Below, piece after piece: positions 1,539 to 29,496 of a stretch of 64,000 nucleotides of DNA; the first letter of the stretch is position 1, and each line of letters begins with the position of its first letter. The stretch is from Phyllobates terribilis (lineage: Eukaryota). A program made the position numbers and the translations under genes. Location: assembly GCF_046119375.1 (NCBI RefSeq), contig NW_027362761.1, positions 1,035,028,001-1,035,092,000 on the forward strand, written 5' to 3'. Below the pieces are notes generated by a model. It had not been told where the DNA came from, made no database searches, and was given only the letters and a program-made list of their open reading frames with translations.

Positions 1539-1689
1539 CTCATAATTCTGCACAATTCCACCTTCTTTAGAGGTGAAAGTGGGCCCCCTTACCTCCTGGG
1601 CCCCTGTGCGGTTGCACAGGTTGCACCCATGATATGTCCGCCCCTGATCCTTGTCTTCATCTTATAATAATTGCTCCATCCTTGCCTCT

Positions 1690-5420: not shown

Positions 5421-6159
5421 TGCTGATAAAACACTGATTTTATTGAAGAAACCACAAGCTGCCATTGTTCTCAAGATGGCGCATGATTTGTGCAGTTACA
5501 ATTCGTGCATCTGTAAATGCAGGTTTACTCCTTCCTGATTTATGTATTTGGTGATTTAGTGACATCTTTCACATATTAATTACATATATTATATCCATCA
5601 GGAAACAGCAGAAGGCGACACCAAAGATGAACAAAATCTAATCCCGGAAATCCCTGACCCTTATATGAGTCAGCCGGAGCTGAACAGCTATCTGATTACT
5701 GGTGAGCGATCACCCGACATTCTACAAGGAATATCCAGATATTTCCAGACACATTAGACTTCTCACATTTCCAGCCCTGTCCCATCTATTCCCAACCTGC
5801 ACAAACTCCTCATCCTGCTGATACCTCAACACTGAGCCTCTGCTGCCGTATGTGTCCCTATTACTGCAGCTGCTGTGAGGTACAATAACAGGGATCCTGT
5901 TACTGCCCCACATAGTAATGCCACCACTGTGACTCTTACAAAGTAAAATGCCCCCTTTGTTCCGTCTAGATAGTAAAATTGCCCCCTAGAAATTATCATT
6001 GCTCTGTGCAAGTGTCCTAGAAAAGTTTCCACATTTTGCCCCTAGGAAGTGATAAAGTCCCCATAGGGACCTTTGACGGTCACAATACTCTGAGTGCCCC
6101 TATAATAATAATGCTCAATTGCCCATTTAACATTTAATAATGTCCCCTGAGTCACCCCA

Positions 6160-7248
6160 CTACAGCTCCTTTATACACAGTATGATGGACCCATAGCTCC
6201 CCTATACACAGTATAATGCCCCCACAGCTCCACTATATACAGTATGATGGGCCCACAGTTCCCCTATATACAGCATGATGGGCCCACAGCTCTCCTATAC
6301 ACAGTATAATGCCCCCACAGCTCCCCTATATACAGTATGATGGGCTCACAGCGGCACTTTACACAGTATGATGAATACACAGCTCCCCTATACACAGTAT
6401 GATGAGCACACAGCTCCCCTATACACAGTATGATGGGCCAACAGCTACCCTATACACAGTATAATTGGCCCACAGCTCCCCTTTACACAGTATGATGGGC
6501 CGACAGCTCCACTATACACAGTATGATGGACCCACAGCTCCCCCATATATAGTATGATGGGCCCACAGCTCCCCTATACACAGTATGATGAGCACACAGC
6601 TACCCTATACACAGTATGATGGGCCAACAGCTACCCTATACACAGCTACCCTATAGTATAATTGGCCCACAGCTACCCTATACACAGTATGATGGACCCA
6701 CAGCTCCACCATATATAGTATGATGGGCCCACAGCCCCCCCATATACTGTATGATGGGCCCACAGCTCCCCCATATACAGTATGGTGGGCCCACAGCTAC
6801 CCTATACACAGTATGAAGGGCACACAGCTCCCCTATACACAGTATGATGGGCCGACAGCTACCCTATACACAGTATAATGGGCCCACAGCTACCCTATAC
6901 ACAGTATGAAGGACCCACAGCTCCCCCATATATAGTATGATGGGCCCACAGATCCTCTATACACAGTATGATGGGCCCACAGCGCCACTATACAGCGTAT
7001 GATGGACCCACAGCTCCCCCATATATAGTATGATGGGCACACAGCTCCCCTATACACAGTATAGTGAGCCCACAGCTCCCCTATACACAGTATGATGGGC
7101 ACACAGCTCCCCTATACACAGTATGATGAGCACACAGCTCCCCTATACACAGTATAGTGAGCCCACAGCTCCCCTATACACAGTATAGTGAGCCCATAGC
7201 TCCCCTATACACAGTATAGTGAGCCCACAGCTCCCGTATACATAGTAT
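6160..7248. repeat. Minisatellite, 31-bp unit CCCACAGCTCCCCTATACACAGTATGATGGG; target of the Gypsy insertion
   Basis: Direct periodicity; a unit remnant GTATGATG resumes at 28228. Confidence 0.95.
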
Positions 7249-8192
7249 TGAGTCGGACTACAGGGGAGGGGTACTCGGATACCGGGATGGATGGGTTACT
7301 TTTGTGGGGATCACGGTTGGTCGGTTCCCGGTTCCGTGCCCTGGACCGTCAGTAAAGGGATGGGGGTGAGGATGATGGGAGTATTGTGTCCTGACGCCTC
7401 CTGTGGTAACTGGTAAAATCGGTTACCAGCGCTGTGTATGGTTGCTGAGGTTATCGGCATACGGCTTGTACGAACGCTATAGGCAGTAATGTCAAAGTAG
7501 GCACACACACACATTAAGTCTTTGTTTCAGTACCTTTCTTTTACTGATGTCCGGTAACAGGTACAGTTCAGGAGGGTAACCAGGTTTTCGGTGCAGGTAG
7601 AGATATTCACCCTGGAGATTTGTGAGGCCTCCTCTCACAATGTGTGCGTTGTTTGGGATCAGTCCTGCCTTAAGCTGAACCTGCCACCTTTTACTTTCTT
7701 TGGGGTCCTTCTCCACAACTGACAATGAGGACCTTTCCTTGGGGCTACCAATTCTCTTTCTGGGCCCCTGGTCCTATACTTGGTCAAGTTTGGCAACTCT
7801 TTCCCCTTCTTCTTCAGGGGGAGTAGATCCTCCTGATCTGTCCGGGTTTTCTATGCTATTCCTGAATTAATAGCAATCTCGGTCTCCGGTGCCCAGATGA
7901 GCTAAAGGGATAATAGTTTTATCTCTTTCTTTCTCCCTCTAGCCTCCGTCCCTCTCTCTAGGGCGCTTCACAACACAGACCTGTTTCCTAGTTCAGGGCT
8001 TCACTGGTCCTCGGCCAACAGCTCTCTGTCTCTCTCCTCCTTCACCCGTCTCTAGACTAACTGCCACTTTGCTGTCTCCCTGGAAACTGACTCCTCCCCT
8101 CAGACCTGGGGTGGAAGGTGTTGTGTGTGCCCAAGTGTACATCTCTCCCTGCACCTATGGATCCTGTGGTAATCCCCCGCAGGGGTGCCACA
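7249..8192 (-). repeat. Gypsy-1 3' LTR
   Basis: Direct repeat of 27284-28227 with at least 12 substitutions (hand count, about 1.3%); adjacent PPT at 8193-8207. Confidence 0.97.
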
Positions 8193-9058: not shown

Positions 9059-10970
9059 TCAACAAGGGAAGATTGTCTTAATTGTCCTTGGCGTCTCTTC
9101 TTCTGGTATGGGACAAGGGATATATTCTTTTTGTTGTAAGGGTTGAGGACACTTCTTTAAGTGGTCTCGGGACACTGTTGCTGTTGTTTTTCCGTTATCC
9201 TTGCTGATTAGACAGGTTTTCTGGTTGTCAAAATTGGATGGTAATACAGTGTATGGTTCTTCTTCCCATTGATTATCTAGCTTATGAAGTCTCTTTTTCC
9301 TTTTCAAAACCAATTCTCCGGGGGTTAACGGGATTCCTTGTGCATTTTTATTGAAATTGGTTTCTTGTCTTTCTCTGGATTTTGCTAGACTTTTTTCAAC
9401 ACACTCCTGTATTTTCTTGTATTGCTCTGTTCTTCTAGTATCCCAATCTGTACTTGAGGAGTCTTCCTCAGGAACTACAATGCCCATTTCAAAGTCCACT
9501 GGCAATTTTCCTGGTCTCACTCTCATTAAGTATGCCGGGGTACAATTAGTTGAGCTTACTGGGATGTTGTTATAGATGTCAATCAGATCTGGTAATTTCT
9601 CTGGCCATCTGTTTCTGTCTTCCAAGGGCAGAGTCTTCAGCAATTCTATTACCACGTGATTCATTTTTTCGTACATTCCGTTAGTTTGGGGATGGTAAGG
9701 CGTGGTACGAATTTTCTTGCATCCATACAAGCTACAGAACTCTTGAAATATTTCCACTTCAAAGGCAGGATCCTGATCTGTCAATACTTGTTCTGGATAT
9801 CCATGTGGCCTGCAGAAATAAGCTTGAAAGGCTCTTGCTGCTGTCTGAGCTGTCAAGTCCTTCACAGGAGCTACCACTAGGAATCTGGAATAGTGGTCCA
9901 CCATGGTAAGAGCATAAGTATAGCCTGATCTACTGGGTGTGAGTTTGACATGATCCAAGGCTACTAGTTCCAAGGGCTGTTTGGTCATGATAGGCTGGAG
10001 TGGTGCTTTCAGGTTGTTACGATCTCCTCTTCTTAATGAGCATGGGCCACAATTTTTACACCATTTTTCTATGGAAGACCTCATGCCAATCCAATAAAAC
10101 CTCTCATGTAACAGTATTTCCAGTTTTCTCCATCCAAAGTGTCCTGCTCCATTATGGTACGCTTCCAATACCATTTGGACGTCTCTCTTTGGAACCACAA
10201 CTTGCCATACCATTTCATGTGTCCTTGGATTGATATACCGTCTGCACAATTGGTTTTTATAGATAAATAACCTGCTTCTTTCTTTCCACAGGTATTGGGC
10301 CTCTGGGGGAGCATTCTTCTCAATTTTGGAATCCGGTTGGGTTACCAGCCTCTTCACTAGGCTCACTGCCGGATCGCTGTCTTGGGTTTCTTTCCATCCA
10401 TAATGAGGCAGCGGGTTTAGTGCAACATCCTGACGGTTCTGGTAGATATGGGTTTCTGTCATTTTCCATTTTCTACTTTTATGGAAAGCTGGAAGTTCTA
10501 TTTCCTCCAAGTCATCTGTTTCTTCTTCAAGCCCTTGCAAATGTACTTGAAGGTTTCTGGAGAGGGCATCAGCATTTTCATTTCCACGGCCTGTTCGGTA
10601 CTTGATAGTAAAGTCGTAGTTCGATAGCCGGGCCATCCAGCGCTGCTCCAATGCACCAAGCTTTGCAGTATCCAAGTGTGTTAGCGGATTATTGTCCGTA
10701 AAGATGGTAAATTTTGAAGCTGCTAAGTAATGCTTGAACCTCTCCGTGACTGCCCACACCAAGGCCAGGAACTCCAACTTAAAGGAACTGTAATTTTCCG
10801 GGTTCCTCTCAGTAGGTCGAAGTCTTCTACTGGCATAGGCAATTACTCTTTCCTTGCCTTCTTGTATTTGGGACAGTACTGCTCCCAGGCCTACATTACT
10901 TGCATCTGTGTAGAGGACAAATGGTAGGTTATAATCTGGGTACGCCAAGATTTCCTCACCGGTCAGGGCC
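9059..10970 (-). pseudogene. pol: Gypsy-1 pol, 3' part (RNase H and integrase)
   Basis: LYTDASNVGLGAVL, ELVALDH, VDHYSRF, HPQTNG and the HHCC zinc finger. Joins 24004-25032 in frame once the Maverick and one TSD copy are removed. Confidence 0.95.
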
Positions 10971-11554
10971 AGTAGTGTAGCAGCCCTATCTTTCGTCAAA
11001 CTCAATTTGACAGGTGCCACGCCCCCTATCAAAGTGTATCAAAGTGTGTAGCCACACCCCTCCTCCCCCTCCCCTATCAGTACGTGTGTTGTATCTTATC
11101 ATTTTATATGAATTTTATATGAGTTTGATGATGGTATCTGATTATTTACTCTTATTTGATAGTGTATGAGTTTATATGAATTTTATTGTTCCAGCAGATC
11201 TGTGTTTATATGAATTATATGGGCAAGTTACAACTACCCCCAAGTATATAAAGTGTGTGTTTTATACGGATGTAAAAAGCAAAGACACAGTAAAAGTATT
11301 AAACGATTTTATTGTTTTAAAAAATAAATACATCTCAAAGACATTTCAATAATATAAAAATCCTTACAGAATATTATAAAAAGTATCACAAGTACAATTA
11401 ATATACAGCATTACAATTCTTACAAAATAATATAAAAAGTGTTACATTCACATGTACCAAAATGCATGTAATAATAATAATATACATCATTACATTTCTT
11501 GCAGATTAATATAGAGCGTTACAATTCAGTCAGATCATTTATCCAATACATCAC

Positions 11555-12325
11555 TTACATCGTGAGCCACATGGATTGTAGTAATGGTAGAGACCTTTTT
11601 TTAGGCAGCAAAGTTCCTTGTGTGATACCTAATGATGGAGAGTGTAAAGATTGAATAGCGCGGGTCGGTGTGGATAGCGTCCGGGGTGTAGATACATCGA
11701 TACCTTCACTGATGGAAATTTTTAATCCATCTAAAAGCTGTCTAGTAGCGGGATTGGCCACAACTGTAGATGGAATATTTAGCTCTGCCATTGCCTGCAT
11801 AAATGAATCCCAACCCCGAGGCAGATTCCTGCTGGTCAGGGCATGGCTCTGTGTTGTACTACGTACCAAATCCAGCAAGTTAGATCCTGGTATTACAGTT
11901 CCTTTGAAAATAAATTCGCTTTTATCATTCCAGGATGTAACATTTTTATTCTGCAGCAGCCTGTTTAGTAAAAATTCAGCATTCTTTTTATATCGTTGGT
12001 TTACATGGCTTACAATTTCAGTGACCTCTTGATTTTAATCAGGGCCTGAATTTGGCAATTGCTGCTGATCAGATTCAGGAGTGCTAACGAGATTTAAAGT
12101 TGTTACTTCTTTTGAACTGTGCCTCGCATGTACCAAGTATCGTTGTAGCACGGAACTATACATTTTAATTTTCACATCATCGGGTATGTCACGACGTTGT
12201 AAAACTGCGCTAATTTCATCATCAAGACGACGAATAACACTCTCACGTATGTTATCTGTATTAGGGGGTCTTAGTTTGACTAGATCCTGTTTGGGAACTA
12301 GATACATTTTCTCTGTGTGCTCCAT
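11555..12325 (-). pseudogene. Maverick conserved accessory ORF (256 codons) with one in-frame TAA, left arm
   Basis: The ORFs 12035-12325 and 11555-11878 are one frame across the TAA at 12035-12037 (SGPD*NQEVTEIV...GSNLLDLVR). Confidence 0.75.
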
Positions 12326-12735
12326 TATTTGCCTGTGAGCAGACTTGTTATTATCGGTATTGCAAATCCGAAAAGAGGACCTATAAACCCGCCGGTCTGC
12401 TTTAGTAGGCGCTTCTTTTTCTTTATGGGCTGCGATCTATCACTCAGGGTTCTTATAGCTTTACGCCACTTCTTTAATATGTTTTTTTGTCGCTCTTTCA
12501 GGGGTATTCGGCCTTTTAAAATGTTTAAAGCAATTTCACCTATGGCTGTAATTAAATCTCTGCTTGCATTGTGCAAAATAGATTTTCTGACAGCGGGTGT
12601 TGCCTTCACCAGTGTTTTTAAGAGAGCCCAGTTACGACGGAGTCTCTCAGACATCTTTACAACACTATGGCCGCAGTGTAGAATGCCTGATTCCATGTAA
12701 AATTCACTTTTTAGAACTATTTTTCTTCTGCACAT
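12325..12735 (-). CDS. Small basic Maverick protein with a C-terminal GG-FIGPL amphipathic tail (adenovirus pX/pVI-like), left arm
   Basis: K/R-rich body ending KQTGGFIGPLFGFAIPIITSLLTGK; conserved slot after the ATPase. Confidence 0.7.
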   Translation of the reverse strand: MCRRKIVLKSEFYMESGILHCGHSVVKMSERLRRNWALLKTLVKATPAVRKSILHNASRDLITAIGEIALNILKGRIPLKERQKNILKKWRKAIRTLSDRSQPIKKKKRLLKQTGGFIGPLFGFAIPIITSLLTGK

Positions 12736-13378
12736 AGACAGCGGGCAATGCTGGTGGAAACATCCCCGTCCTTAAGCGCAGATCCTCAGGGGTATTAGCT
12801 CTCAAGTCTAACAGCAAATACCCATAAGGTTCCCTCGTTGCATCCTCAAAAGCTTCCAAGAAAAAACGTGTTTTTCCGGGGTACATCTGACGGGCTAGAG
12901 TTAAAATTTGTAATTTATCTCGTGGATTTTTAAAAAGCACCATGTACTTTGTGTTTAAAGTTATTGTGCGGCTTTTCTTACCCTGACAAAATATGTTTTG
13001 TACCAGGTAGAAAATGCTGAGATTTCTGTGGTGAACATACTTGGTAAATGCTTTTTCTATCTCGCAGTTATCGCTAGCACTCTCCATGAGATCATCAACA
13101 ATAGCCAAATTTACCTTGTCAGGCGGGAATAAACCATCATCTACGAATGTATGCGGCAGACCCTCCACAAATCTGATGTGGGGAAAAGAGAGAGAGATTT
13201 CATCATATAGTTTTTGCCAGCATGAATAAAACCAAACAATATTATTGTGTTTGTGAGAAAAATGAGTTTCAATATTATGTAACAGCTGTTTTACAAAATA
13301 GCTCTTTCCGGAATTAGACGGGCCGGCTAGAATGCAGGAGAATGGGTGTTGTAGCCGCGGCTCCATCACAATACTCAA
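12704..13378 (-). CDS. FtsK/A32-like packaging ATPase, left arm
   Basis: Walker A GPSNSGKS, Walker B AIVDDLM, HHRN motif. Confidence 0.92.
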   Translation of the reverse strand: MSIVMEPRLQHPFSCILAGPSNSGKSYFVKQLLHNIETHFSHKHNNIVWFYSCWQKLYDEISLSFPHIRFVEGLPHTFVDDGLFPPDKVNLAIVDDLMESASDNCEIEKAFTKYVHHRNLSIFYLVQNIFCQGKKSRTITLNTKYMVLFKNPRDKLQILTLARQMYPGKTRFFLEAFEDATREPYGYLLLDLRANTPEDLRLRTGMFPPALPAVYVQKKNSSKK

Positions 13379-16300
13379 CTAATAGCCAAATGGCAGGGTG
13401 GTGAAGTCGTCTAATAGGCGCCGCTTTGTGTAAACGCACTTTTGTGTTTTGCGCAGCGGTCTTGTTTCAACGTCCCAGTACTTTTTATTCCTCACAATGC
13501 CCGGCTGTTCTACGACAATTCGCTTCTGTGTTTCTGTGTCAGAATTACGTGGGTAGTCCAGAACTAAATCTTTCAGACTGCTAAAATTAATAGATTGAGT
13601 GTTACCGACATTTAGTGTTATATCCTTAACTTTTAAGACAGTTTTACCAGTGTTGAGTTTGTATCCGTAAGTTTTGGGCCCCGCAGAAACAAAGTCTGTG
13701 ATGTGAGTGTCATCGGGTATCTCACTGGTCAGTTCACCCAGGTAATCGCCTAAAGTCGGCTGCCACTCACCTTCCCTCTGCACAAAAATAACCGAATCTG
13801 TGTCGTGATAAAGGCACCTCTCCTGCAACCGGTCCAGCAGAGAATAGAGCTCTAGCCGGGCATACGCGGTTGTAAAACACGCTATAAAAATGTTGTGTTT
13901 TTGTTGACCGTGTGGTGTCCTTTTGCATATTTCCAGTTAATGGTTGCAGTTTCATCATCAATGAAATGTAACATTGAAATGTCATAGTAAGGTAGAAACA
14001 CATGCTGAAAAAGCTCATCGGGGTTGCTAACAATGCTGGTACATGGTAAATTAGATCTCTGTGCAAACTTTCCCCATAAAGAATTTAAGAAAAGTTTGGA
14101 GATCTGTCTCTTTGCAGGATTCACGCCTATATTTTCAGGCCGTAATTGTACACCTTCTTTTTCAAGAAAGGAGTCAATGTACTGTTTTTTCTTGACATCA
14201 TCACTGCACCAGCTGGGATAACCCGAAGCCTCTTGCTTATCCCGAAGATGTAATTTAATGTAGGGGGCAAACAGATCATCAGTGCTGTTAGGAAAATGAC
14301 ATATTTCGTAGATGTGTGCGATCCTATACCCTTTTTCTATGGCCAGCTCAAGCTCTATAGTGCACCATGTACCTGTCAGGGAACGCTCTTCATCACTATG
14401 TGCACAAACATCCGTTTGTGAATTTACAGCGCATGTGTAGCAAAGGGGGAACATTAACTTTTTGTTGAGTTTTACAGGGAGAACTGGAAAGAATAAATCT
14501 CTTGGAGGGTAGACCTTGACTTTAGCAATGCCAAAGTATTTTTTAATGAAACCAAAATCATCATAGATGATATCTGGGTGGCCTACAGGGTATGTTTTAG
14601 TTTTGTTTACAAAGGGATAAAGACTGCTGAAATCATAGTAATGTAATGTCTCTCCATCTCTCAGGCTGTGATAGAGTTTAATGGCGTTAGTTCGGCTGCC
14701 ATAAAGAGCATCGCGTGGGTCTAAAGGTGTTGGGAATTCCATTTGGAGAAGAAATGTTTGAAGGTTAGAATCTTTTTCAACCATTTCACTCCAGTCGTGC
14801 TCCCACATCACTCTTACGCTGTATCCGCAGCACTGCAAGTAACGCTTTTTAGCTAAAAAGGCGTAATATAACTGGCCATAAGATGTATTTGTGACCTTAT
14901 TTGTGTCATTTTCATTGTAACATACAGGACAGCCATGATAAAAACAACCCTGAAATTCAAATGCTACATGCTGTTTGTTAACATAGGCGTAACCATCTAA
15001 AAAATATCTCCCGACTTGTTTTTCGCCGCCCCTCAAAGCATGCTGAATGGTAATGTTCTCTGTATGTGCTACATACATGAGCCACTGTATAGCGGGTGAC
15101 GAGTAGCGCTTTTTTGTCTTGTGATAATTATCACCGGGTAAAATGGCGATGGTGTTTTTTGGTAGAAATTTAAATCTGTACATTGCCATACATACAGAGG
15201 CCAGGGTGATGAGTTGAAAAGGATCAACACATCGGGACACTACAATTTTTTTCTTTTGCAGCTTACAGTATGTTTTAACATTTTTTCTCGTCATTTCCAT
15301 AATACGCTCTCTGTAAAGTTCACACGAGCGTCTCAAAATCTCAACATCTTGCTGACAATAAGATTTTAGCTCAGCCTTAAAGTCAAAAGTTGAATCAGTC
15401 TGGCTGTCATACCACTCCATGAACTCGCCTTTCTCACTAGCTGACATGTACTCCACACCATAATATTCTACAGCAGGTAGTGGCCCAACATAGTTTTGAT
15501 TTTCTTCGGTGTTAAAAAAGTGTGGGAAGTGACCCTTTGAGCCTGAGAAGCCCATGGCTTGTGGTAGTTTACTAAGCTTCATGGGTATGAAATTTAGCGA
15601 GTCTATGAACCTCATTTCCAAATCAGGCAGCGTCACACACAAGAGACGACCACCTTGAGTTATCAGCTGCACTTTTAGTTTTTCAAAAATCAGCTCCTTA
15701 ACAATAAAGTAAGCGTCGTATCGGCCGGCGTTGTGGGCTATAAACGTATAGTGTGAAAATTTACCGCTGGCAAAGAACTGAACAAAGTCATGAGTGCAAG
15801 TTTTACCTTCAAATTCCCAGGAAAGGTTACCACACAGCGTTGTAGCATAAATGTAATTCGGGATGTGCGTGCCTGTCTCCTGCATGCATTCAAAGTCGTA
15901 AAAGATATAGAGATCTGACTCTTCCTTTGGTACATACCGCCGCATGTAACAAAGATGGTCATCGAATTTATTTAGATGAATGTGACAAACAGTGCAGCGC
16001 AGACCATTACATTTATGTTCAGTCTCACTATTTCGGGCTACAAAACGGTGACATTCATCACAGAATGTTTTAAGCCTACAGAATGTTGATTTTTCTGCGG
16101 CAAATTGTTTGTGATAATCTAAGCACTCGCTCGAGCGACAATACACCCGACAGGTAGGACATCGGGGTTGTTGCGCGCCAGTGCTTTCCACACAACTCTC
16201 TCTTTGACAAGCTCTACAAAAATACTGGCAAGAATGGTTGTACTTGTGATGAAACACCGAATTGCAGCGCTCACAAAAGTGAAACTCACCGATAAAACCC

Positions 16301-17386
16301 TTCATATTTTTGATACCATAGTAGTGTGCATCATGATGCAATAAGAAAATGGTTTTACCGCTAGCTGTGTTGGTTGTTTCAAAGTAACGCCAATCACCCT
16401 GACTGTAGTACAGCACTTTAATGTTGACGTCCAGATGTTTCTCAAAAGCTGCAATATCGCTGAAGCTTACTAGTTGGCTATCAGGTATGCACAAGTCTGT
16501 GTGTAGGCTGTTAGCGCGGCTCAGTAAAACTGCATCACCAACATCGGTGTCTGCCAACAAGGCACACACACTAGCAGCGAAACACAGATTTGTGCTGTAA
16601 TTGTTAAAGTCGTACAGCCACTGTCTCTTTTGTTTGATGATTTGACTGCTCGTTATAGATTTAAGTCGTCTTTTACACCGCCTCGCCTGTTTTTAATGAT
16701 TGTAACGACTAATTTCAGGGAATTGGCTGCTAAACATTCAGCATTACTTTGCAGTGTGCGAGCAACAGCGTTTAAAATGATTCCGAACTAAAATCCTCCC
16801 GACTTTGTTTGGCAGCAAAAATGGGATCTAAGGTGTCACCCCCTTCGAGTCTTAACTGTACAAAATCACCAGGATCGATGTCTTGGATGATTCTGTCCAG
16901 TAATGACTGGACGGCGGCATGCACAGCATTCATGGCATCTACAAATGAATGTATTCGGTCTAAATTTTCAAATCTGAAATGATCAGTATACATGTGCGCA
17001 TTGAAATTGCGGAGATGTCTTTCATGGTGGTGAAAATGCTGTAAAAATACTGAATGATCTGTCCCCGCTACATAATCACCACCACCAATACCTGCAGCAA
17101 CATCATCAGCAACATAATCCTCTACATTTTCAGCATGGGGTTCATTGGGAGAGTTGTTTTGTGAATTTTGAAACACGCTGGTGGTAACATTTGCCGGGGC
17201 ATCTTGACTGTGAAAATGTTGATGGGCTTGTTGTATCAGCAACTGAGGCTCCTGATTAGTTGTTGTGACACGAGAGGCCTCTCGTCGCCTTCTAGCCGCT
17301 AGTGACCGCTTAGCGCTCACCAATAGTTTTAGAGCTCGTTTTATGACTCTGGCTCTGTTATACAGATGTATTGGGGTTTTAGCCAT
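13379..17386 (-). pseudogene. polB: Protein-primed family B DNA polymerase, left arm; full N-terminus but three 1-bp deletions
   Basis: Inverse copy of 17473-21333. One-base-shorter homopolymer runs at about 16775, 16672 and 13893 split it into the three listed ORFs. Confidence 0.93.
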
Positions 17387-17472
17387 TTTCTGCAGTCCAC
17401 AACCAATCTGTCTCAGTCACAAGTTATTTGAATCTACAGATGTTGATGCTGTATCTGTATACAAGCGTCTGA

Positions 17473-20400
17473 ATGTGTGCAGCTCATCAATATTTGCACA
17501 GTCAAGATGCCCCGGCAAATGTTACCACCAGCGTGTTTCAAAATTCACAAAACAACTCTCCCAATGAACCCCATGCTGAAAATGTAGAGGATTATGTTGC
17601 TGATGATGTTGCTGCAGTTATTGGTGGTGGTGATTATGTAGCGGGGACAGATCATTCAGTATTTTTACAGCATTTTCACCACCATGAAAGACATCTCCGC
17701 AATTTCAATGCGCACATGTATACTGATCATTTCAGATTTGAAAATTTAGACCGAATACATTCATTTGTAGATGCCATGAATGCTGTGCATGCCGCCGTCC
17801 AGTCATTACTGGACAGAATCATCCAAGACATCGATCCTGGTGATTTTGTACAGTTAAGACTCGAAGGGGGTGACACCTTAGATCCCATTTTTGCTGCCAA
17901 ACAAAGTCGGGAGGATTTTAGTTCGGAATCATTTTTAAACGCTGTTGCTCGCACACTGCAAAGTAATGCTGAATGTTTAGCAGCCAATTCCCTGAAATTA
18001 GTTGTTACAATCATTAAAAACAGGCGAGGCGGTGTAAAAAGACGACTTAAATCTATAACGAGCAGTCAAATCATCAAACAAAAGAGACAGTGGCTGTACG
18101 ACTTTAACAATTACAGCACAAATCTGTGTTTCGCTGCTAGTGTGTGTGCCTTGTTGGCAGACACCGATGTTGGTGATGCAGTTTTACTGAGCTGCGCTAA
18201 CAGCCTACACACAGACTTGTGCATACCTGATAGCCAACTAGTAAGCCTCAGCGATATTGCAGCTTTTGAGAAACATCTGGACGTCAACATTAAAGTGCTG
18301 TACTACAGTCAGGGTGATTGGTGTTACTTTGAAACAACCAACACAGCTAGCGGTAAAACCATTTTCTTATTGCATCATGATGACCACTACTATGGTATCA
18401 AAAATATGAAGGGTTTTATCGGTGAGTTTCACTTTTGTGAGCGCTGCAATTCGGTGTTTCATCACAAGTACAACCATTCTTGCCAGTATTTTTGTAGAGC
18501 TTGTCAAAGAGAGAGTTGTGTGGAAAGCACTGGCGCGCAACAACCCCGATGTCCTACCTGTCGGGTGTATTGTCGCTCGAGCGAGTGCTTAGATTATCAC
18601 AAACAATTTGCCGCAGAAAAATCAACATTCTGTAGGCTTAAAACATTCTGTGATGAATGTCACCGTTTTGTAGCCCGAAATAGTGAGACTGAACATAAAT
18701 GTAATGGTCTGCGCTGCACTGTTTGTCACATTCATCTAAATAAATTCGATGACCATCTTTGTTACATGCGGCGGTATGTACCAAAGGAAAAGTCAGATCT
18801 CTATATCTTTTACGACTTTGAATGCATGCAGGAGACAGGCACGCACATCCCGAATTACATTTATGCTACAACGCTGTGTGGTAACCTTTCCTGGGAATTT
18901 GAAGGTAAAACTTGCACTCATGACTTTGTTCAGTTCTTTGCCAGCGGTAAATTTTCACACTATACGTTTATAGCCCACAACGCCGGCCGATACGACGCTT
19001 ACTTTATTGTTAAGGAGCTGATTTTTGAAAAACTAAAAGTGCAGCTGATAACTCAAGGTGGTCGTCTCTTGTGTGTGACGCTGCCTGATTTGGAAATGAG
19101 GTTCATAGACTCGCTAAATTTCATACCCATGAAGCTTAGTAAACTACCACAAGCCATGGGCTTCTCAGGCTCAAAGGGTCACTTCCCACACTTTTTTAAC
19201 ACCGAAGAAAATCAAAACTATGTTGGGCCACTACCTGCTGTAGAATATTATGGTGTGGAGTACATGTCAGCTAGTGAGAAAGGCGAGTTCATGGAGTGGT
19301 ATGACAGCCAGACAGATTCAACTTTTGACTTTAAGGCTGAGCTAAAATCTTATTGTCAGCAAGATGTTGAGATTTTGAGACGCTCGTGTGAACTTTACAG
19401 AGAGCGTATTATGGAAATGACGAGAAAAAATGTTAAAACATACTGTAAGCTGCAAAAGAAAAAAACTGTAGTATCCCGATGTGTTGATCCTTTTCAACTC
19501 ATCACCCTGGCCTCTGTATGTATGGCAATGTACAGATTTAAATTTCTACCAAAAAACACCATCGCCATTTTACCCGGTGATAATTATCACAAGACAAAAA
19601 AGCGCTACTCGTCACCCGCTATACAGTGGCTCATGTATGTAGCACATACAGAGAACATTACCATTCAGCATGCTTTGAGGGGCGGCGAAAAACAAGTCGG
19701 GAGATATTTTTTAGATGGTTACGCCTATGTTAACAAACAGCATGTAGCATTTGAATTTCAGGGTTGTTTTTATCATGGCTGTCCTGTATGTTACAATGAA
19801 AATGACACAAATAAGGTCACAAATACATCTTATGGCCAGTTATATTACGCCTTTTTAGCTAAAAAGCGTTACTTGCAGTGCTGCGGATACAGCGTAAGAG
19901 TGATGTGGGAGCACGACTGGAGTGAAATGGTTGAAAAAGATTCTAACCTTCAAACATTTCTTCTCCAAATGGAATTCCCAACACCTTTAGACCCACGCGA
20001 TGCTCTTTATGGCAGCCGAACTAACGCCATTAAACTCTATCACAGCCTGAGAGATGGGGAGACATTACATTACTATGATTTCAGCAGTCTTTATCCCTTT
20101 GTAAACAAAACTAAAACATACCCTGTAGGCCACCCAGATATCATCTATGATGATTTTGGTTTCATTAAAAAATACTTTGGCATTGCTAAAGTCAAGGTCT
20201 ACCCTCCAAGAGATTTATTCTTTCCAGTTCTCCCTGTAAAACTCAACAAAAAGTTAATGTTCCCCCTTTGCTACACATGCGCTGTAAATTCACAAACGGA
20301 TGTTTGTGCACATAGTGATGAAGAGCGTTCCCTGACAGGTACATGGTGCACTATAGAGCTTGAGCTGGCCATAGAAAAAGGGTATAGGATCGCACACATC

Positions 20401-21333
20401 TACGAAATATGGCATTTTCCTAACAGCACTGATGATCTGTTTGCCCCCTACATTAAATTACATCTTCGGGATAAGCAAGAGGCTTCGGGTTATCCCAGCT
20501 GGTGCAGTGATGATGTCAAGAAAAAACAGTACATTGACTCCTTTCTTGAAAAAGAAGGTGTACAATTACGGCCTGAAAATATAGGCGTGAATCCTGCAAA
20601 GAGACAGATCTCCAAACTTTTCTTAAATTCTTTATGGGGAAAGTTTGCACAGAGATCTAATTTACCATGTACCAGCATTGTTAGCAACCCCGATGAGCTT
20701 TTTCAGCATGTGTTTCTACCTTACTATGACATTTCAATGTTACATTTCATTGATGATGAAACTGCAACCATTAACTGGAAATATGCAAAAGGACACCACA
20801 CGGTCAACAAAAACACAAACATTTTTATAGCGTGTTTTACAACCGCGTATGCCCGGCTAGAGCTCTATTCTCTGCTGGACCAGTTGCAGGAGAGGTGCCT
20901 TTATCACGACACAGATTCGGTTATTTTTGTGCAGAGGGAAGGTGAGTGGCAGCCGACTTTAGGCGATTACCTGGGTGAACTGACCAGTGAGATACCCGAT
21001 GACACTCACATCACAGAGTTTGTTTCTGCGGGGCCCAAAACTTACGGATACAAACTCAACACTGGTAAAACTGTCTTAAAAGTTAAGGGTATAACACTAA
21101 ATGTCGGTAACACTCAATCTATTAATTTTAGCAGTCTGAAAGATTTAGTTCTGGACTACCCACGTAATTCTGACACGGAAACACAGAAGCGAATTGTCGT
21201 AGAACAGCCAGGCATTGTGAGAAATAAAAAGTACTGGGAGGTTGAAACAAGACCACTGCGCAAAACACAAAAGTGCGTTTACACAAAGCGGCGCCTATTA
21301 GACGACTTCACCACCCTGCCATTTGGCTATTAG
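17473..21333 (+). CDS. polB: Protein-primed family B DNA polymerase, right arm; open frame lacking the native first 53 codons
   Basis: Exo motifs FYDFE, HNAGRYD and YCQQD; polymerase motifs YDFSSLYP, KLFLNSLWGKF and YHDTDS. Confidence 0.93.
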   Translation: MCAAHQYLHSQDAPANVTTSVFQNSQNNSPNEPHAENVEDYVADDVAAVIGGGDYVAGTDHSVFLQHFHHHERHLRNFNAHMYTDHFRFENLDRIHSFVDAMNAVHAAVQSLLDRIIQDIDPGDFVQLRLEGGDTLDPIFAAKQSREDFSSESFLNAVARTLQSNAECLAANSLKLVVTIIKNRRGGVKRRLKSITSSQIIKQKRQWLYDFNNYSTNLCFAASVCALLADTDVGDAVLLSCANSLHTDLCIPDSQLVSLSDIAAFEKHLDVNIKVLYYSQGDWCYFETTNTASGKTIFLLHHDDHYYGIKNMKGFIGEFHFCERCNSVFHHKYNHSCQYFCRACQRESCVESTGAQQPRCPTCRVYCRSSECLDYHKQFAAEKSTFCRLKTFCDECHRFVARNSETEHKCNGLRCTVCHIHLNKFDDHLCYMRRYVPKEKSDLYIFYDFECMQETGTHIPNYIYATTLCGNLSWEFEGKTCTHDFVQFFASGKFSHYTFIAHNAGRYDAYFIVKELIFEKLKVQLITQGGRLLCVTLPDLEMRFIDSLNFIPMKLSKLPQAMGFSGSKGHFPHFFNTEENQNYVGPLPAVEYYGVEYMSASEKGEFMEWYDSQTDSTFDFKAELKSYCQQDVEILRRSCELYRERIMEMTRKNVKTYCKLQKKKTVVSRCVDPFQLITLASVCMAMYRFKFLPKNTIAILPGDNYHKTKKRYSSPAIQWLMYVAHTENITIQHALRGGEKQVGRYFLDGYAYVNKQHVAFEFQGCFYHGCPVCYNENDTNKVTNTSYGQLYYAFLAKKRYLQCCGYSVRVMWEHDWSEMVEKDSNLQTFLLQMEFPTPLDPRDALYGSRTNAIKLYHSLRDGETLHYYDFSSLYPFVNKTKTYPVGHPDIIYDDFGFIKKYFGIAKVKVYPPRDLFFPVLPVKLNKKLMFPLCYTCAVNSQTDVCAHSDEERSLTGTWCTIELELAIEKGYRIAHIYEIWHFPNSTDDLFAPYIKLHLRDKQEASGYPSWCSDDVKKKQYIDSFLEKEGVQLRPENIGVNPAKRQISKLFLNSLWGKFAQRSNLPCTSIVSNPDELFQHVFLPYYDISMLHFIDDETATINWKYAKGHHTVNKNTNIFIACFTTAYARLELYSLLDQLQERCLYHDTDSVIFVQREGEWQPTLGDYLGELTSEIPDDTHITEFVSAGPKTYGYKLNTGKTVLKVKGITLNVGNTQSINFSSLKDLVLDYPRNSDTETQKRIVVEQPGIVRNKKYWEVETRPLRKTQKCVYTKRRLLDDFTTLPFGY

Positions 21334-22008
21334 TTGAGTATTGTGATGGAGCCGCGGCTACAACACCCATTCTCCTGCATTCTAGCCGGCCCGTCTAATT
21401 CCGGAAAGAGCTATTTTGTAAAACAGCTGTTACATAATATTGAAACTCATTTTTCTCACAAACACAATAATATTGCTTGGTTTTATTCATGCTGGCAAAA
21501 ACTATATGATGAAATCTCTCTCTCTTTTCCCCACATCAGATTTGTGGAGGGTCTGCCGCATACATTCGTAGATGATGGTTTATTCCCGCCTGACAAGGTA
21601 AATTTGACTATTGTTGATGATCTCATGGAGAGTGCTAGCGATAACTGCGAGATAGAAAAAGCATTTACCAAGTATGTTCACCACAGAAATCTCAGCATTT
21701 TCTACCTGGTACAAAACATATTTTGTCAGGGTAAGAAAAGCTGCACAATAACTTTAAACACAAAGTACATGGTGCTTTTTAAAAATCCACGAGATAAATT
21801 ACAAATTTTAACTCTAGCCCGCCAGATGTACCCCGGAAAAACACGTTTTTTCTTGGAAGCTTTTGAGGATGCAACGAGGGAACCTTATGGGTATTTGCTG
21901 TTAGACTTGAGAGCTAATACCCCTGAGGATCTGCGCTTAAGGACGGGGATGTTTCCACCAGCATTGCCCGCTGTCTATGTGCAGAAGAAAAATAGTTCTA
22001 AAAAGTGA
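21334..22008 (+). CDS. FtsK/A32-like packaging ATPase, right arm
   Basis: GPSNSGKS, TIVDDLM, HHRN. Confidence 0.92.
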   Translation: MSIVMEPRLQHPFSCILAGPSNSGKSYFVKQLLHNIETHFSHKHNNIAWFYSCWQKLYDEISLSFPHIRFVEGLPHTFVDDGLFPPDKVNLTIVDDLMESASDNCEIEKAFTKYVHHRNLSIFYLVQNIFCQGKKSCTITLNTKYMVLFKNPRDKLQILTLARQMYPGKTRFFLEAFEDATREPYGYLLLDLRANTPEDLRLRTGMFPPALPAVYVQKKNSSKK

Positions 22009-22387
22009 ATTTTACATGGAATCAGGCATTCTACACTGCGGCCATAGTGTTGTAAAGATGTCTGAGAGACTCCGTCGTAACTGGGCTCTCTTAAAAACAC
22101 TGGTGAAGGCAACACCCGCTGTCAGAAAATCTATTTTGCACAATGCAAGCAGAGATTTAATTACAGCCATAGGTGAAATTGCTTTAAACATTTTAAAAGG
22201 CCGAATACCCCTGAAAGAGCGACAAAAAAACATATTAAAGAAGTGGCGTAAAGCTATAAGAACCCTGAGTGATAGATCGCAGCCCATAAAGAAAAAGAAG
22301 CGCCTACTAAAGCAGACCGGCGGGTTTATAGGTCCTCTTTTAGGATTTGCAATACCGATAATAACAAGTCTGCTCACAGGCAAATAA
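21977..22387 (+). CDS. Small basic pX/pVI-like Maverick protein, right arm
   Basis: Inverse copy of 12325-12735, ending KQTGGFIGPLLGFAIPIITSLLTGK. Confidence 0.7.
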   Translation: MCRRKIVLKSEFYMESGILHCGHSVVKMSERLRRNWALLKTLVKATPAVRKSILHNASRDLITAIGEIALNILKGRIPLKERQKNILKKWRKAIRTLSDRSQPIKKKKRLLKQTGGFIGPLLGFAIPIITSLLTGK

Positions 22388-23157
22388 TGGAGCACACAGA
22401 GAAAATGTATCTAGTTCCCAAACAGGATCTAGTCAAACTAAGACCCCCTAATACAGATAACATACGTGAGAGTGTTATTCGTCGTCTTGATGATGAAATT
22501 AGCGCAGTTTTACAACGTTGTGACATACCCGATGATGTGAAAATTAAAATGTATAGTTCCGTGCTACAACGATACTTGGTACATGCGAGGCACAGTTCAA
22601 AAGAAGTAACAACTTTAAATCTCGTTAGCACTCCTGAATCTGATCAGCAGCAATTGCCAAATTCAGGCCCTGATTAAAATCAAGAGGTCACTGAAATTGT
22701 AAGCCATGTAAACCAACGATATAAAAAGAATGCTGAATTTTTACTAAACAGGCTGCTGCAGAATAAAAATGTTACATCCTGGAATGATAAAAGCGAATTT
22801 ATTTTCAAAGGAACTGTAATACCAGGATCTAACTTGCTGGATTTGGTACGTAGTACAACACAGAGCCATGCCCTGACCAGCAGGAATCTGCCTCGGGGTT
22901 GGGATTCATTTATGCAGGCAATGGCAGAGCTAAATATTCCATCTACAGTTGTGGCCAATCCCGCTACTAGACAGCTTTTAGATGGATTAAAAATTTCCAT
23001 CAGTGAAGGTAGCGATGTATCTACACCCCGGACGCTATCCACACCGACCCGCGCTATTCAATCTTTACACTCTCCATCATTAGGTATCACACAAGGAACT
23101 TTGCTGCCTAAAAAAAGGTCTCTACCATTACTACAATCCATGTGGCTCACGATGTAA
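22387..23157 (+). pseudogene. Maverick conserved accessory ORF (256 codons) with one in-frame TAA, right arm
   Basis: TAA at 22675-22677; the frame continues open to 23157. Confidence 0.75.
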
Positions 23158-24013
23158 GTGATGTATTGGATAAATGATCTGACTGAATTGTAACGCTCTA
23201 TATTAATCTGCAAGAAATGTAATGATGTATATTATTATTATTACATGCATTTTGGTACATGTGAATGTAACACTTTTTATATTATTTTGTAAGAATTGTA
23301 ATGCTGTATATTAATTGTACTTGTGATACTTTTTATAATATTCTGTAAGGATTTTTATATTATTGAAATGTCTTTGAGATGTACGGTATTTATTTTTTAA
23401 AACAATAAAATCGTTTAATACTTTTACTGTGTCTTTGCTTTTTACATCCGTATAAAACACACACTTTATATACTTGGGGGTAGTTGTAACTTGGCCATAT
23501 AGATAATATGCCCAAGCAATAAGATGCACACTATCAAATAAACAGTATGGGGGTATAAAACTCATATAAAATGATAATTGTAACTTGGCCATATACATAA
23601 TATGCCCAAGCAAATTATAAAACTCATATAAAATGATAATTGTAACTTGCCCAGTATTTATCTTTAAAAAAATAAAATCTTTTAATACTTTTACTGTGTC
23701 TTTGCTTTTTACATCCGTATAAAACACACACTTTATATACTTGGGGGTAGTTGTAACTTGCCCATATAATTCATATAAACACAGATCTGCTGGAACAATA
23801 AAATTCATATAAACTCATACACTATCAAATAAGAGTAAATAATTAGATACCATCATCAAACTCATATAAAATTCATATAAAATGATAAGATACAACACAC
23901 GAACTGATAGGGGAGGGGGAGGAGGGGTGTGGCTACACACTTTGATACACTTTGATAGGGGGCGTGGCACCTGTCAAATTGAGTTTGACGAAAGATAGGG
24001 CTGCTACACTACT

Positions 24014-26129
24014 AGGGCCTGTTTCATTTGTTGGAAGGAGTCTTCTTGTTTCTTTCCCCATTCCAACGGCGGCTCTGAAGACCTTCTCTTCTTAGCTTGG
24101 CCTACCAGAAGATCTTGTAGGGGCGCTGCCATCTTCGTGTAGCCCTTAATAAATCTTCTGTAATACCCAACCAAACCTAAGAACTGACGTATCTCTCTGA
24201 CGGTGGCCGGCCTTTGCCAGTCCTGGATCGCTGTCACTTTTTCCGGATCTGGTGTTACGCCATCCGCACTGATCACATGCCCTAGGTATTGGACTTTTGG
24301 CTTCAGCAGGTAACATTTAGATGGTTTGAGTTTCATTCCATACTTTGTTAGAGCTGTAAATAGCTCCACCAGGTGTTCCAGATGTTCTTCATACGTTTTG
24401 GAATACACTATGACGTCATCCAGGTATAAAAGTACCGTCTCAAAATTCCGGTGTCCCAGGCAGCACTCCATGAGTCTCTGAAACGTCCCCGGTGCATTGC
24501 ATAATCCAAATGGCATGCTATTGAATTCGCATAGGCCCACTGGTGTTGTGAATGCTGTTTTCTCCCTGTCTTCTTCTGCAACGGAGACCTGCCAATACCC
24601 ACTAGTGAGATCTAATGTGGAGAAATACTTAGCAGTCTTTAATGCAGCAAGAGTCTCCTCTATCCGGGGTAACGGGTAAGCATCTTTGTGAGTGATCTTA
24701 TTTACCTCCCTGTAATCCACACACATCCTCATAGTGCCATCTTTTTTTCTGACTAAGACTAAGGGGGCCGCCCAGGGACTACAGCTATCTCTTATAACCC
24801 CGGCCTCCTTCATGTCCTGCAGCATCTCTTTAGCACGCTGGTAGTGGTTTGGTGGGATGGGTCTATGTCTCACTTTAATCGGGGGATGATCTCCTGTGGG
24901 TATGTGATGGCGTACCCCTTTTATCCTCCCAAAATCTAATGGATGCTTACTGAATACTTGGCTAAACTCTTGTACTACCCGGTAAACTCCTTGCTTCTGG
25001 TGGTCGGGAGTGGCATCAGTCCCTATGTGCAACTGCTGACACCACTCCTCCAGCTGTCCCTTGGGGTTGTTGTCCTCCGCCTGACTTGAGGCAAGGGCTC
25101 TAGTGTCTGTATGTTATTATTACTGACAGTGTACAGCTTTGCTACAGTAACATACCGGGGTAGTTTCACTTCTTCCTCACCACAATTCAACACACGAATT
25201 GGTACTCTTCCCCTGCCTACATCCACCACCCCTCTAGCTGTCAGCAGTGTAGGTCTATGCTCTGAATATACCGGTTCTACAATTGCCTGGTATTCCTTTC
25301 TTCTGATACCCATAGCTGCTCGACACCATATCATCATTACACTGTTTGGTGGTAATACAATGGGAAACGGGTCTGTTACCCGCGCACTGCCAATCTCCCC
25401 CCCAGACAGATTTACCTGTTGCTTGTGAATTAAGGCACGGATTTCTCTTTGAAGGACTCTCCTCCGCCCAATGCCAGCAGTCTCTGTAATCTGTTGGAGT
25501 AAAAACATCACTTCTTCAAGGCAGTTTTCAATCACATTAGTACCAAGCACCATGTAAGGATATTTGTTATTGGGGTCATCTTCTACCACACATAACCCTT
25601 GGCCTCTCAACTCCACCCTCCCCAGCTTTATTGTCACTTCTCTAAACCCCACCTGATTCAGTGGTTGACCATTAGCTGCTAAAATGACAAGACTAGAGTC
25701 TGGGGGGCTAAGATCAGCATCAGACCAAAATTGCTTGTAAAGGATATGTGGGATGGTGGTGACTTGTGACCCAGTGTCCAATAGGGCCGATGTGGGGATT
25801 CCTTCTAGCGTAATGTTGAGGTACGGGCGGCCTCCCACATACCGACTACGCCAGTCATATGGGCCCTGCCATTTTATTCCTGGGGGTTGGCCCTGGGACC
25901 CAGGAATCTCGGGTTTAAATGACATCTTCTTGCAAAGTGGCCCGGTTTGTTGCAACGAAGGCAAACGGGTTGTCCTGAAAAATCTGTGTGGTCGGTGGCT
26001 CTGCGTCGGAATGGTGCGTTGGTCCCCTGAACGGGCGACTTGTTGATCTCCTCCACGGGCGACATGGCTCTGCGTCGGAATGGTGCGTTGGTCCACTGAA
26101 CGGGCGACATGAGCTTTCTCCTCATCCAC
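24014..26129 (-). pseudogene. pol: Gypsy-1 pro-pol, 5' part (protease and RT)
   Basis: ALLDTGSQ protease motif; YPLPRI, LDLTSGYWQ and LYLDDV RT motifs; frameshift near 25085. Confidence 0.95.
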
Positions 26130-27283: not shown

Positions 27284-28227
27284 TGAGTCGGACTACAGGG
27301 GAGGGGTACTCGGATACCGGGATGGATGGGTTACTTCTGTGGGGATCACGGTTGGTCGGTTCCCGGTTCCGTGCCCTGGACCGTCAGTAAAGGGATGGGG
27401 GTGAGGATGATGGGAGTATTGTGTCCTGACGCCTCCTGTGGTAACTGGTAAAATCGGTTACCAGCGCTGTGTATGGTTGCTGAGGTGATCGGCATATGGC
27501 TTGTACGAACGCTATAGGCAGTAATGTCAAAGCAGGCACACACACACATTAAGTCTTTGTTTCAGTACCTTTCTTTTACTGATGTCCGGTAACAGGTACA
27601 GTTCAGGAGGGTAACCAGGTTTTTGGTGCAGGTAGAGATATTCACCCTGGAGATTTGTGAGGCCTCCTCTCACAATATGTGCGTTGTTTGGGATCAGTCC
27701 TGCCTTAAGCTGAACCTGCCACCTTTTACTTTCTTTGGGGTCCTTTTCCACAACTGACAATGAGGACCTTTCCTTGGGGCTACCAATTCTCTTTCTGGGC
27801 CCCTGGTCCTATACTTGGTCAAGTTTGGCAACTCTTTCCCCTTCTTCTTCAGGGGGGGTAGATCCTCCTGATCTGTCCGGGTTTTCTATGCTATTCCTGA
27901 ATTAATAGCAATCTCGGTCTCTGGTGTCCGGATGAGCTAAAGGGATAATAGTTTTATCTCTTTCTTTCTCCTTCTAGCCTCCGTCCCTCTCTCTAGGGCG
28001 CTTCACAACACAGACCTGTTTCCTAGTTCAGGGCTTCACTGGTCCTCGGCCAACAGCTCTCTGTCTCTCTCCTCCTTCACCCGTCTCTAGACTAACTGCC
28101 ACTTTGCTGTCTCCCTGGAAACTGACTCCTCCCCTCAGACCTGGGGTGGAAGGTGTTGTGTGTGCCCAAGTGTACATCTCTCCCTGCACCTATGGATCCT
28201 GTGGTAATCCCCCGCAGGGGTGCCACA
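27284..28227 (-). repeat. Gypsy-1 5' LTR
   Basis: TG...CA, 944 bp, direct repeat of 7249-8192. Confidence 0.97.
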
Positions 28228-29496
28228 GTATGATGTATGATGCTCTAGGTAGGCGACTGCACCCCCTACCGGTAGCGACGCTACTGATGTCTAAGGATGC
28301 ACCGTACACTCCCATATTAGAATCCCCATATAACAAGTGTTAATCTCTTTTACAGACGTCTTGTCATTTCTCTGTTATATTGCTGTATTATCTATGTAGG
28401 ACTAATATCCTCTAATACAGTTTATTTCTTCATCATTTTTTCACTATTTTAGAAACAGCTGAGTTGGCGGATCCTGACAGTGTGATCTGTGACATCCCAG
28501 AGATCCAAGAATCTGCTGATGTAAGTATTATACATCTCGTATGTGAATCAACGGATCATGGTGTGTGAATGACCCATCCAGTATTATCCCCCATATAACC
28601 AGTTGACATCTCTATTCTAAGAGTAGATGACACCATTGCGTTAGATTTAGCATTTATATTAAAGGGAATCTGGCAACAGGTTTTTGCTACTCATGTGAGA
28701 GCAGCATGTTGTAGGAGCAGGGAACCTGATTCCAACGATATATCCAATACCTTACTGAGTGCAGCAGTTGTGATACAATCACTACTTTTTCTGCGGCACA
28801 TCTGGCAGAGCTCTAAGTGCTGAGCCCTGTATAACCCCACCCACACCAGTGATTGGCAGCTTCTTGTGTGCACTGTGCATAGGCAGAAAGCTGCTAATCA
28901 ATGGTGGGGTTACATTGAGCAATAGAACTACATGGCACGAGACAGACAGTCCTCTAGTGATATTCTCCAGCTTGTATCGTCCCTACATCGGATCAGTGCA
29001 CATTAGTTGGGACATAATATAGGGGGAGAAGTTTCTGTATCTGGAGATTTTTTCCTGCATATTATGTATCTTAATATCATTTCTTCTTCTTTTCTAGAAC
29101 TTGATCAAATCATTGGTCCCGGCAGGAGAGCCGCACATGAGCGACTATGAGACATCTAAACTCATCAGCAGTGGAAATTTTGGGTGAGATTTCTGTTGTA
29201 TCATCCACATTTCTCAGGGTTCCCTATGACAATGCTTCAGCCTCTGTGCTCGGACATTCAGTGTTATCATAGTGACATGATGAGTCCACACCATTGTCCA
29301 CATGTAATGGTCACTATTCAGCTCAGTTATATACAGTTGAGCAATTATGTCTTGCGGTGTGGAGGGAGCATAATAAACTTCTTAAGGTCACTGGACGACT
29401 TTCAATTTAGACCAATTTTTATTTAGACTGAATTGTATCTACTGGTGAAATATAGTGAATCTGTCCGGGATGAATATCGGTAGATTCTCTTATCTG

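Follow-up and report, generated by a model that had tools for sequence, protein, structure and literature searches.

Introduction

The Mavericks of vertebrates carry 5'-(AGT)2//(ACT)2-3' ends, are flanked by a 6-bp target duplication and measure 12.7-24.6 kb (Barreat and Katzourakis 2021, PMC8097293), and their gene content and end motifs have served to model their extrachromosomal replication on that of adenovirus and phi29 (PMC8097293). In phi29, which is replicated by protein priming, template switching by the polymerase yields subgenomic molecules, mainly from one end of the genome (PMC4974454). Here we describe a Maverick in a 64,000-nucleotide (nt) stretch of the Phyllobates terribilis genome (NCBI RefSeq assembly GCF_046119375.1, contig NW_027362761.1, positions 1,035,028,001 to 1,035,092,000 of the forward strand; hereafter the window, with coordinates counted from its first letter) which is a palindrome of 13,043 bp, both ends of which are polymerase-side ends. 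It is a capsid-less and integrase-less derivative that probably arose when a strand doubled back at a pre-existing inverted repeat during protein-primed replication, and that was then probably integrated by a helper.

The chemistry of fold-back is already known from chromosomes and viruses. No report of whole-element palindromic Mavericks was found in the literature searched, which excluded the founding Polinton papers, Repbase and most subscription papers. The word stem 'palindrom' is absent from PMC8097293, and the accessible parts of PMC3014272, PMC6431247 and bioRxiv 10.64898/2026.07.28.741278 deal with low-copy Polintons, non-autonomous elements generally or short terminal palindromes, and not with whole-element palindromes.

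Results

A palindromic Maverick with two polymerase-side ends

The arms of the element, 10971-17228 and 17481-24013, are about 99.3% complementary as inverted repeats, and both termini run on into the interior sequence of the polymerase side. The element carries two polymerase modules and no integrase/capsid module, and is therefore not an intact (autonomous) Maverick. Outside the centre the arms differ at 28 of 5806 sites, and in addition by three frameshifts and a 267-bp unit. There is one subterminal unit at the left end and two at the right, a copy-number variation also seen in other copies. The possibility that the short left end was the capsid-side end of the parent was rejected, since the sequence inward of it is that of the polymerase side, with one subterminal unit missing. 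The junction between the arms occurs once in the assembly (1 match).

At the centre the arms are mismatched at three pairs, which on the + strand are 17213/17496 (A/G), 17218/17491 (G/T) and 17225/17484 (G/T). An earlier, sequence-only reading of the window had singled out these three, two of them as G-T wobbles, in arms otherwise nearly identical, and the base comparison bears it out. At the arm-wide rate of difference, three or more mismatches within a given 19 nt have a probability of about 1e-4, and thus the inner mismatches are not drift after formation; all three are older than the palindrome itself.

Parental copies are collinear with the window up to the junction

A search of the frog's own genome with the palindrome centre as query gave 72 matches, and loci were obtained for 27 places besides the window, in 24 of which the stretch upstream of polB was reached. 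The sequence-only reading had held that a parental Maverick would be collinear with the window upstream of polB, with the sequence GCTCATCAATATTTGCAC in place, and would then diverge into the other gene module. A parent devoid of GCTCATCAATATTTGCAC was looked for, and is not what these places hold: the sequence is letter-perfect in 8 of the 24 and present as variants in 15, the last place being interrupted at 17471. Five of the variants retain the TTTGCAC end and have an inner change, and ten, which belong to older copies, differ at the end. Collinearity extends to 17499 in 23 of the 24 informative places, past which all 23 run into one and the same non-polB sequence, as had been foreseen; a continuation into polB like that of the window was seen in none of the 24. 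Contigs from runs X1, X2, X3, X5, X7 and X8 have loose ends at 17495-17499 (at 17499 in all except X1) that represent the parental continuation. In run X1, which may be the assembled sample, one contig spans the window junction itself: it is 61 nt long (17466-17526), has a depth of 8.5 and matches without differences, with 34 letters to one side of the junction and 27 to the other, the latter below the 31-letter rule. Junction-crossing contigs were absent among the pieces listed for X2, X3, X5, X7 and X8, which implies neither absence nor polymorphism, since contigs drop rare forms.

The un-rearranged copy C41 measures 14.5 kb, including a 1-kb nested insertion, and its duplicate 13,548 bp. 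In C41 the polymerase module lies on one strand and, past the junction point, the integrase, capsid-like and protease-like genes lie on the other. The polymerase of the parent family matches PF03175 (E 2e-29 in an un-rearranged copy), and a retroviral-type integrase with a chromodomain, absent from the window element, is encoded in a sister copy (rve, E 3e-11). The predicted packaging ATPase and a candidate adenain-like protease match Pox_A32 (E 1e-4) and Peptidase_C5 (E 6e-4), both narrowly missing the Pfam cut-offs. The parent's 435-residue protein, a candidate double jelly-roll capsid protein, has no Pfam match, but its nearest Atlas clusters (score 0.99) have PF21738 (DJR-like) in 14-30% of their members. 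The (AGT)2//(ACT)2 ends, the terminal inverted repeats and the 6-bp target duplication are present both in the window and in the sister copies. By its ends, target duplication, polymerase and integrase, the parent is a vertebrate Maverick.

The junction lies on a pre-existing inverted repeat

The inner ends of the arms form an inverted repeat in which 16 of 19 positions pair (Table 1), and the junction lies exactly at its 3' end. The same 16/19 repeat with a 252-nt loop is found in sister copies, in three of which it does not extend on either side. Several details of the sequence-only reading could thereby be corrected. The weak repeat that it took to predate the palindrome did so, at a length of 19 bp rather than 15; the fold-back that it placed upstream of polB is supported, with the switch point at 17497-17499, 113 nt and not 95 nt upstream of the ATG; and the spacer, to which it assigned 53 polB codons down to 17228 and 95 nt of upstream DNA up to 17481, is correct in these counts, the true unpaired loop being the 252 nt from 17229 to 17480.

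In 7648 nt of an un-rearranged copy, covering its polymerase half, this is the only repeat of at least 16/19 with a loop of up to 1000 nt, and a loop limit of 3000 nt adds one more such site (two overlapping hits). A shuffle control yielded such a repeat with a loop of up to 300 nt in 1 of 12 shuffles, while none of 160,837 random pairs of end and landing site attained 16/19. That such a repeat exists somewhere is an occasional chance feature; that the junction falls on one is not chance.

When 17200-17499 is folded with DNA energy parameters, the repeat is part of the minimum-energy structure; its pairs have probabilities of 0.6-0.97, the A/G mismatch excepted, and its duplex energy is -13.7 kcal/mol on the + strand against -9.8 kcal/mol on the minus strand. 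The geometry suggests that the primer was the + strand ending at 17497-17499 and begun at the polymerase-side terminus, because at each of the three mismatches the product has kept the base of the upstream half, and its switch follows the final three paired bases. With the opposite polarity the homology would be situated in front of the primer and could be of no help. We also considered that the site might hold a conserved functional hairpin and rejected this, as the ten older copies differ at the 3' end of the upstream half; the repeat thus seems to be a chance property of the young subfamily.

Both arms derive from one molecule

When the differences between the arms were set against 19 other arms and copies, 11 proved to be left-only and 13 right-only, and 4 were seen elsewhere. 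Four variants (12037, 13248, 13361 and 14697) are common to both arms and occur in none of the 16-19 others that cover the site, indicating that both arms derive from one molecule. The arms are also mutually nearest, at a distance of 0.48%, the next closest sequences lying at 0.68-0.81%. The window palindrome behaves as the self-copy of one molecule, and the self-copying proposed from the window's sequence is supported by these arms and by a junction on the strongest short-loop repeat. Each arm has gained about 12 changes since the palindrome formed, whereas only four are shared, which dates its formation to the split from its relatives or shortly afterwards.

Palindromes recur across the family

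A census with a 20-base terminal pattern, allowing up to one mismatch and covering one terminal subfamily, gave 63 ends at 36 loci, all of which were read at least partly (six single-ended loci only over a stretch of 10-20 kb at one end). Of these loci, 19 are palindromic, including one that later lost the greater part of an arm, and 17 are non-palindromic. When loci with common flanks are counted together, they amount to 11 palindromic and 9 non-palindromic insertion sites, so that palindromes occupy 11 of 20 young sites. All palindromic sites retain the polymerase side, and 9 of the 11 have a 6-bp target duplication. In a search with the 3' end of polB, 30 of the best 40 matches form 15 close inverted pairs (copies of at least 97% identity), against none of the best 40 matches to the capsid gene. 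A further set of 20 places, mostly older copies, held one palindrome. Selection for a second working polB was tried as the cause of the one-sided bias and rejected, as the palindromes at C5 and C10:95.9 Mb and those of an expanded family lack the 5' half of polB.

Seven distinct palindrome centres were distinguished, including a fusion case at C110 that is taken up below. At the C9 centre, 7 bp of microhomology are accompanied by an insertion of 2 nt, and the spacer measures about 180 nt. Four others (C5, C10:95.9 Mb, C10:197 Mb and the expanded family) have at most 2 bp of junction identity, as read by eye, and spacers of 0.9-3.7 kb, and junction homology is present in only two of the six target-duplicated centres, those of the window and of C9. 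The homology-poor centres may have arisen by homology-free switching or by end-joining of broken molecules, or may have lost a tighter centre later.

The expanded palindromic derivative has an identical centre at 11 loci, on two chromosomes and on unplaced contigs. It occupies four sites with different 6-bp duplications (GCTATG, GTTGGG, AAGAAC and GTCCCT) and one site without a duplication. The presence of one derivative at four different target duplications indicates that palindromes themselves were mobilised, in at least this one case; as the derivative lacks most of polB and the ATPase, it would have moved in trans. Both arms of a copy tend to carry the same copy-specific variants, which would fit, as expected, either re-copying of a hairpin or conversion from arm to arm. 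Eight copies share the GTCCCT insertion site (C4:778.8 and 779.3 Mb, five loci on C19, and C192:3.07 Mb). As in segmental duplications, the spacer there occurs in either orientation within one pair of flanks, and in two copies a single flank is present on both sides, in inverted orientation; the spacer flips represent either recombination between the arms or assembly error.

Internally deleted Mavericks that are not palindromic were also observed, at C3:690.58 Mb, C721, C29:7.28 Mb, C3:273.7 Mb and C8:204.1 Mb (the last from search hits). Several of them have in common one deletion of the 5' half of polB, which is also found in the expanded palindrome, indicating that the latter came from an already defective lineage. 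At C5:559.8 Mb there is an older inverted pair whose members are 3.4% apart, and at C332:424-443 kb two old polB 5' regions, 83-91% alike, lie head to head about 8 kb apart, possibly as a decayed palindrome with insertions.

A second, related Maverick family, with the terminus AGTAGTATAG, has a palindrome as well, at C4:473812974-473844660 (C4:473.8 Mb), with the target duplication CGGGGT. Its centre lies upstream of polB, is almost spacer-less and has a 14-15-nt duplication.

Insertion site and annotation of the window

The features of the element and of its insertion site are collected in Table 1. The Maverick interrupts the pol gene of a Gypsy-type long terminal repeat (LTR) retrotransposon, the LTRs of which differ at 12 of 944 positions. 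The pol frame resumes across both flanks, which are otherwise collinear, and the chromosome around the palindrome shows no rearrangement. The continuous frame, the LTR differences and the retrotransposon's own 4-bp duplication indicate that the host Gypsy is older than the palindrome.

Table 1. Coordinates of the palindromic Maverick and of its host retrotransposon in the window
Feature	Position	Strand	Remarks
Host Gypsy-type LTR retrotransposon	7249-28227	-	LTRs 7249-8192 and 27284-28227; 4-bp duplication GTAT
Left target-site duplication AGGGCC	10965-10970	+	6 bp
Left arm	10971-17228		AGTAGT terminus, polymerase-side terminal repeat with one subterminal unit, small open reading frames (ORFs), ATPase, polB
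Left-arm ATPase	12704-13366	-	
Left-arm polB	ATG at 17386	-	Frame broken by frameshifts near 13895, 16675 and 16778
Inverted repeat, landing half	17210-17228	+	16/19 paired; within polB codons 53-59
Unique loop	17229-17480		252 nt; polB 5' end and upstream DNA; collinear with un-rearranged copies
Predicted 1286-codon ORF	17473-21333	+	9 codons of upstream DNA fused in frame to polB, replacing its first 59 codons
Inverted repeat, priming half, and switch point	17481-17499	+	Parent-collinear through 17499; final CAC pairs perfectly
Right arm (copied strand)	17500-24013		polB body, ATPase 21346-22008, small ORFs, two subterminal units, ACTACT terminus
Right target-site duplication AGGGCC	24014-24019	+	6 bp

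The predicted frame of the right arm matches PF03175 (E 9e-43). Its 1286 open codons result from an ATG in the upstream DNA whose reading frame continues, across the junction, in that of polB. This is probably a coincidence, and the predicted product is without the basic N-terminal 59 residues.

Elsewhere in the window, a nested second palindrome of about 4.5 kb (52270-56743), with 200-bp and 125-bp units, sits between an ORF with a BED finger (49076-52060) and one with a hAT dimerisation domain (57058-57720); an automatic end search in the window found no termini for it. A second LTR retrotransposon, bearing a chromodomain, and a repeat pair of 97% identity that may represent its LTRs lie at 40745-43250 and 63615-64000. 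Tandem arrays occupy 1600-3500 (30-31-bp units), 6070-7340 (31 bp), 29400-31600 (54 bp) and 44800-49100 (109-110 bp).

Discussion

Proposed origin of the palindrome

Fold-back during replication, the origin that we consider probable, would have begun with protein-primed synthesis from the polymerase-side end that came to a halt or suffered a break near 17499. The 3' end of the + strand, at 17497-17499, would then have paired 252 nt back with a sequence of its own strand or of the displaced parental + strand, and its extension back to the polymerase-side terminus would have given a hairpin with origins at both ends. A further protein-primed round through this hairpin would have yielded a linear palindrome with both termini intact and with the three mismatches preserved without repair. 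The integrase of a helper probably inserted this palindrome as a unit, in trans, into the collinear Gypsy pol gene in which the 6-bp duplications are found, and after insertion the arms drifted symmetrically, with 11 left-only and 13 right-only changes. Folding of the new strand on itself, a switch to the displaced parental strand and a broken single strand are each compatible with the sequence, and the first two yield the same product; on physical grounds we favour the displaced-strand switch, as just about 20 nt of new strand need be unwound. We infer that the window palindrome was formed off the chromosome.

Several points weigh against this origin. The junction of the window is single-copy, and its palindrome thus shows no sign of movement after formation; chromosomal repair that rejoined at the terminal repeat would leave an identical target duplication; and no extrachromosomal palindromic molecule was observed in the data, which are assembled contigs. 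The minus strand folds the repeat too, with pair probabilities of 0.3-0.84, so that the wobble asymmetry alone is weak evidence for the polarity of the primer. The variants shared by the arms could stem from gene conversion after insertion. Junction identity of at most 2 bp in four of the six centres means either that repeat-guided fold-back is not the sole route or that centres were later deleted. Palindromes can also arise in another way: the palindrome at C110 (C110:3553203-3565539) has no target duplication, its left arm is closest to a copy at C62 (C62:5724325) and its right arm to another copy, its left flank is a satellite that also flanks the truncated C62 copy, and private sites shared by its arms number 1 in 4360, from which it seems to be either a two-copy fusion or a join made in assembly.

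Alternative explanations

The alternative that survives best, although we think it rather unlikely, is repair in the chromosome, in which an inserted full-length Maverick would have broken just past 17499, the break been resected, its 3' end folded on the same repeat, and a host polymerase copied the left half, the new strand then rejoining the far side by way of the terminal inverted repeat. Human inverted duplications provide documented cases of fold-back at inverted repeats that are short and imperfect, with a spacer of normal copy number (PMC3907307), and fold-back with large loops and imperfect stems is documented in yeast (PMC7467729). Repair of this kind accounts equally well for the junction, the shared variants and the intact target duplication of the window, and is in keeping with a junction that is single-copy. 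It requires, however, that after synthesis of 6 kb the strand switch once more, and precisely, at the terminal repeat, and the paucity of arm-shared changes points to little residence in the chromosome before the event. Moreover, it leaves unexplained the clean target duplications at 9 of 11 palindromic sites, the finding of one palindrome at four different target sites, and the 15 inverted pairs among the best 40 polB-end matches when the best 40 capsid-gene matches gave none. Chromosomal repair thus fits the window locus alone and not the pattern of the family.

It is improbable that the palindrome combines two molecules, whether replicating genomes or inserted copies, which annealing or recombination at the 19-bp repeat united head to head and whose arms were homogenised by later conversion. 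C110 provides an example of two-copy fusion, but the arms of the window are each other's nearest relatives and hold their four private variants in common, and its target duplication and the Gypsy frame are intact; were sister molecules of one replication round the sources of the arms, this would come close to the explanation that we prefer. Large palindromes are hard to assemble, and the junction is found in a listed contig of only one of the six runs, but an assembly artefact from a fold-back long read is very improbable when the arms differ at 28 evenly split sites, by three frameshifts and by a 267-bp unit, when both flanks bear the target duplication and continue the same Gypsy, and when the X1 contig crosses the junction.

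Implications

Beyond the window, we give about even chances to the broader proposal that Mavericks routinely shed polymerase-side snap-back defective genomes during protein-primed strand-displacement replication, that these are replicated and integrated by helpers, that they now rival normal copies among the youngest insertions, and that they represent the birth stage of giant gene-less palindromic Maverick satellites. Because the genome also holds coding parents that share 97-99% identity with the palindromes, the junction can be mapped to the base. Two identical ends with target duplications of their own are the expected leftover of strand-displacement replication with template switching. 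If the proposal holds, the scars would constitute a base-resolved fossil record of a replication cycle known so far by inference from gene content, and the one-sided bias would suggest that a dominant origin or packaging signal resides at the polymerase-side end. The window palindrome offers a testable origin for palindromic Maverick satellites and shows the dynamics of defective genomes in a germline-integrating, DNA virus-like element. Near-perfect palindromes of 10-13 kb are also possible substrates for inversion.

Comparison with known systems

The window element has the ends, target duplication, terminal inverted repeats and module of pPolB and ATPase described for vertebrate Mavericks (PMC8097293). 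The two modules of its parent point apart, as in the cane toad elements, the gene order fits, and the parental length of 13.5 kb is within the published range (PMC8097293). Unlike those elements, however, it has the integrase/capsid/protease module replaced by an inverted copy of the polymerase module (PMC8097293). Chromosomal fold-back inverted duplications (PMC3907307, PMC7467729) show the same inverted duplication, single-copy spacer and short or imperfect inverted homology at the edge of the spacer; in contrast, they rearrange or truncate the chromosome, whereas here the event is confined to a mobile element with collinear flanks.

The snapback genomes of adeno-associated virus (AAV) are likewise defective and self-complementary, with one viral end mirrored and a terminal repeat at both ends (PMC8235507). 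AAV is, however, a hairpin-primed single-stranded DNA with both 5' and 3' snapbacks (PMC8235507), while here only polymerase-side palindromes are found, inherited in integrated form with target duplications. The subgenomic molecules of phi29 also derive from a protein-primed strand-displacement replicon and represent one end (PMC4974454). In contrast to the window palindrome, which is integrated, phi29 is a phage and not integrated. The phi29 subgenomic molecules of Murthy et al. 1998 are reportedly palindromic. As in fold-back events, the window element has a single-copy spacer of 252 nt, a 16/19 repeat that is present in the parents, and arms that by their shared variants come from one molecule; and with the same genome end at both termini and its cis signals intact, it has the form of a snap-back genome of a protein-primed replicon.

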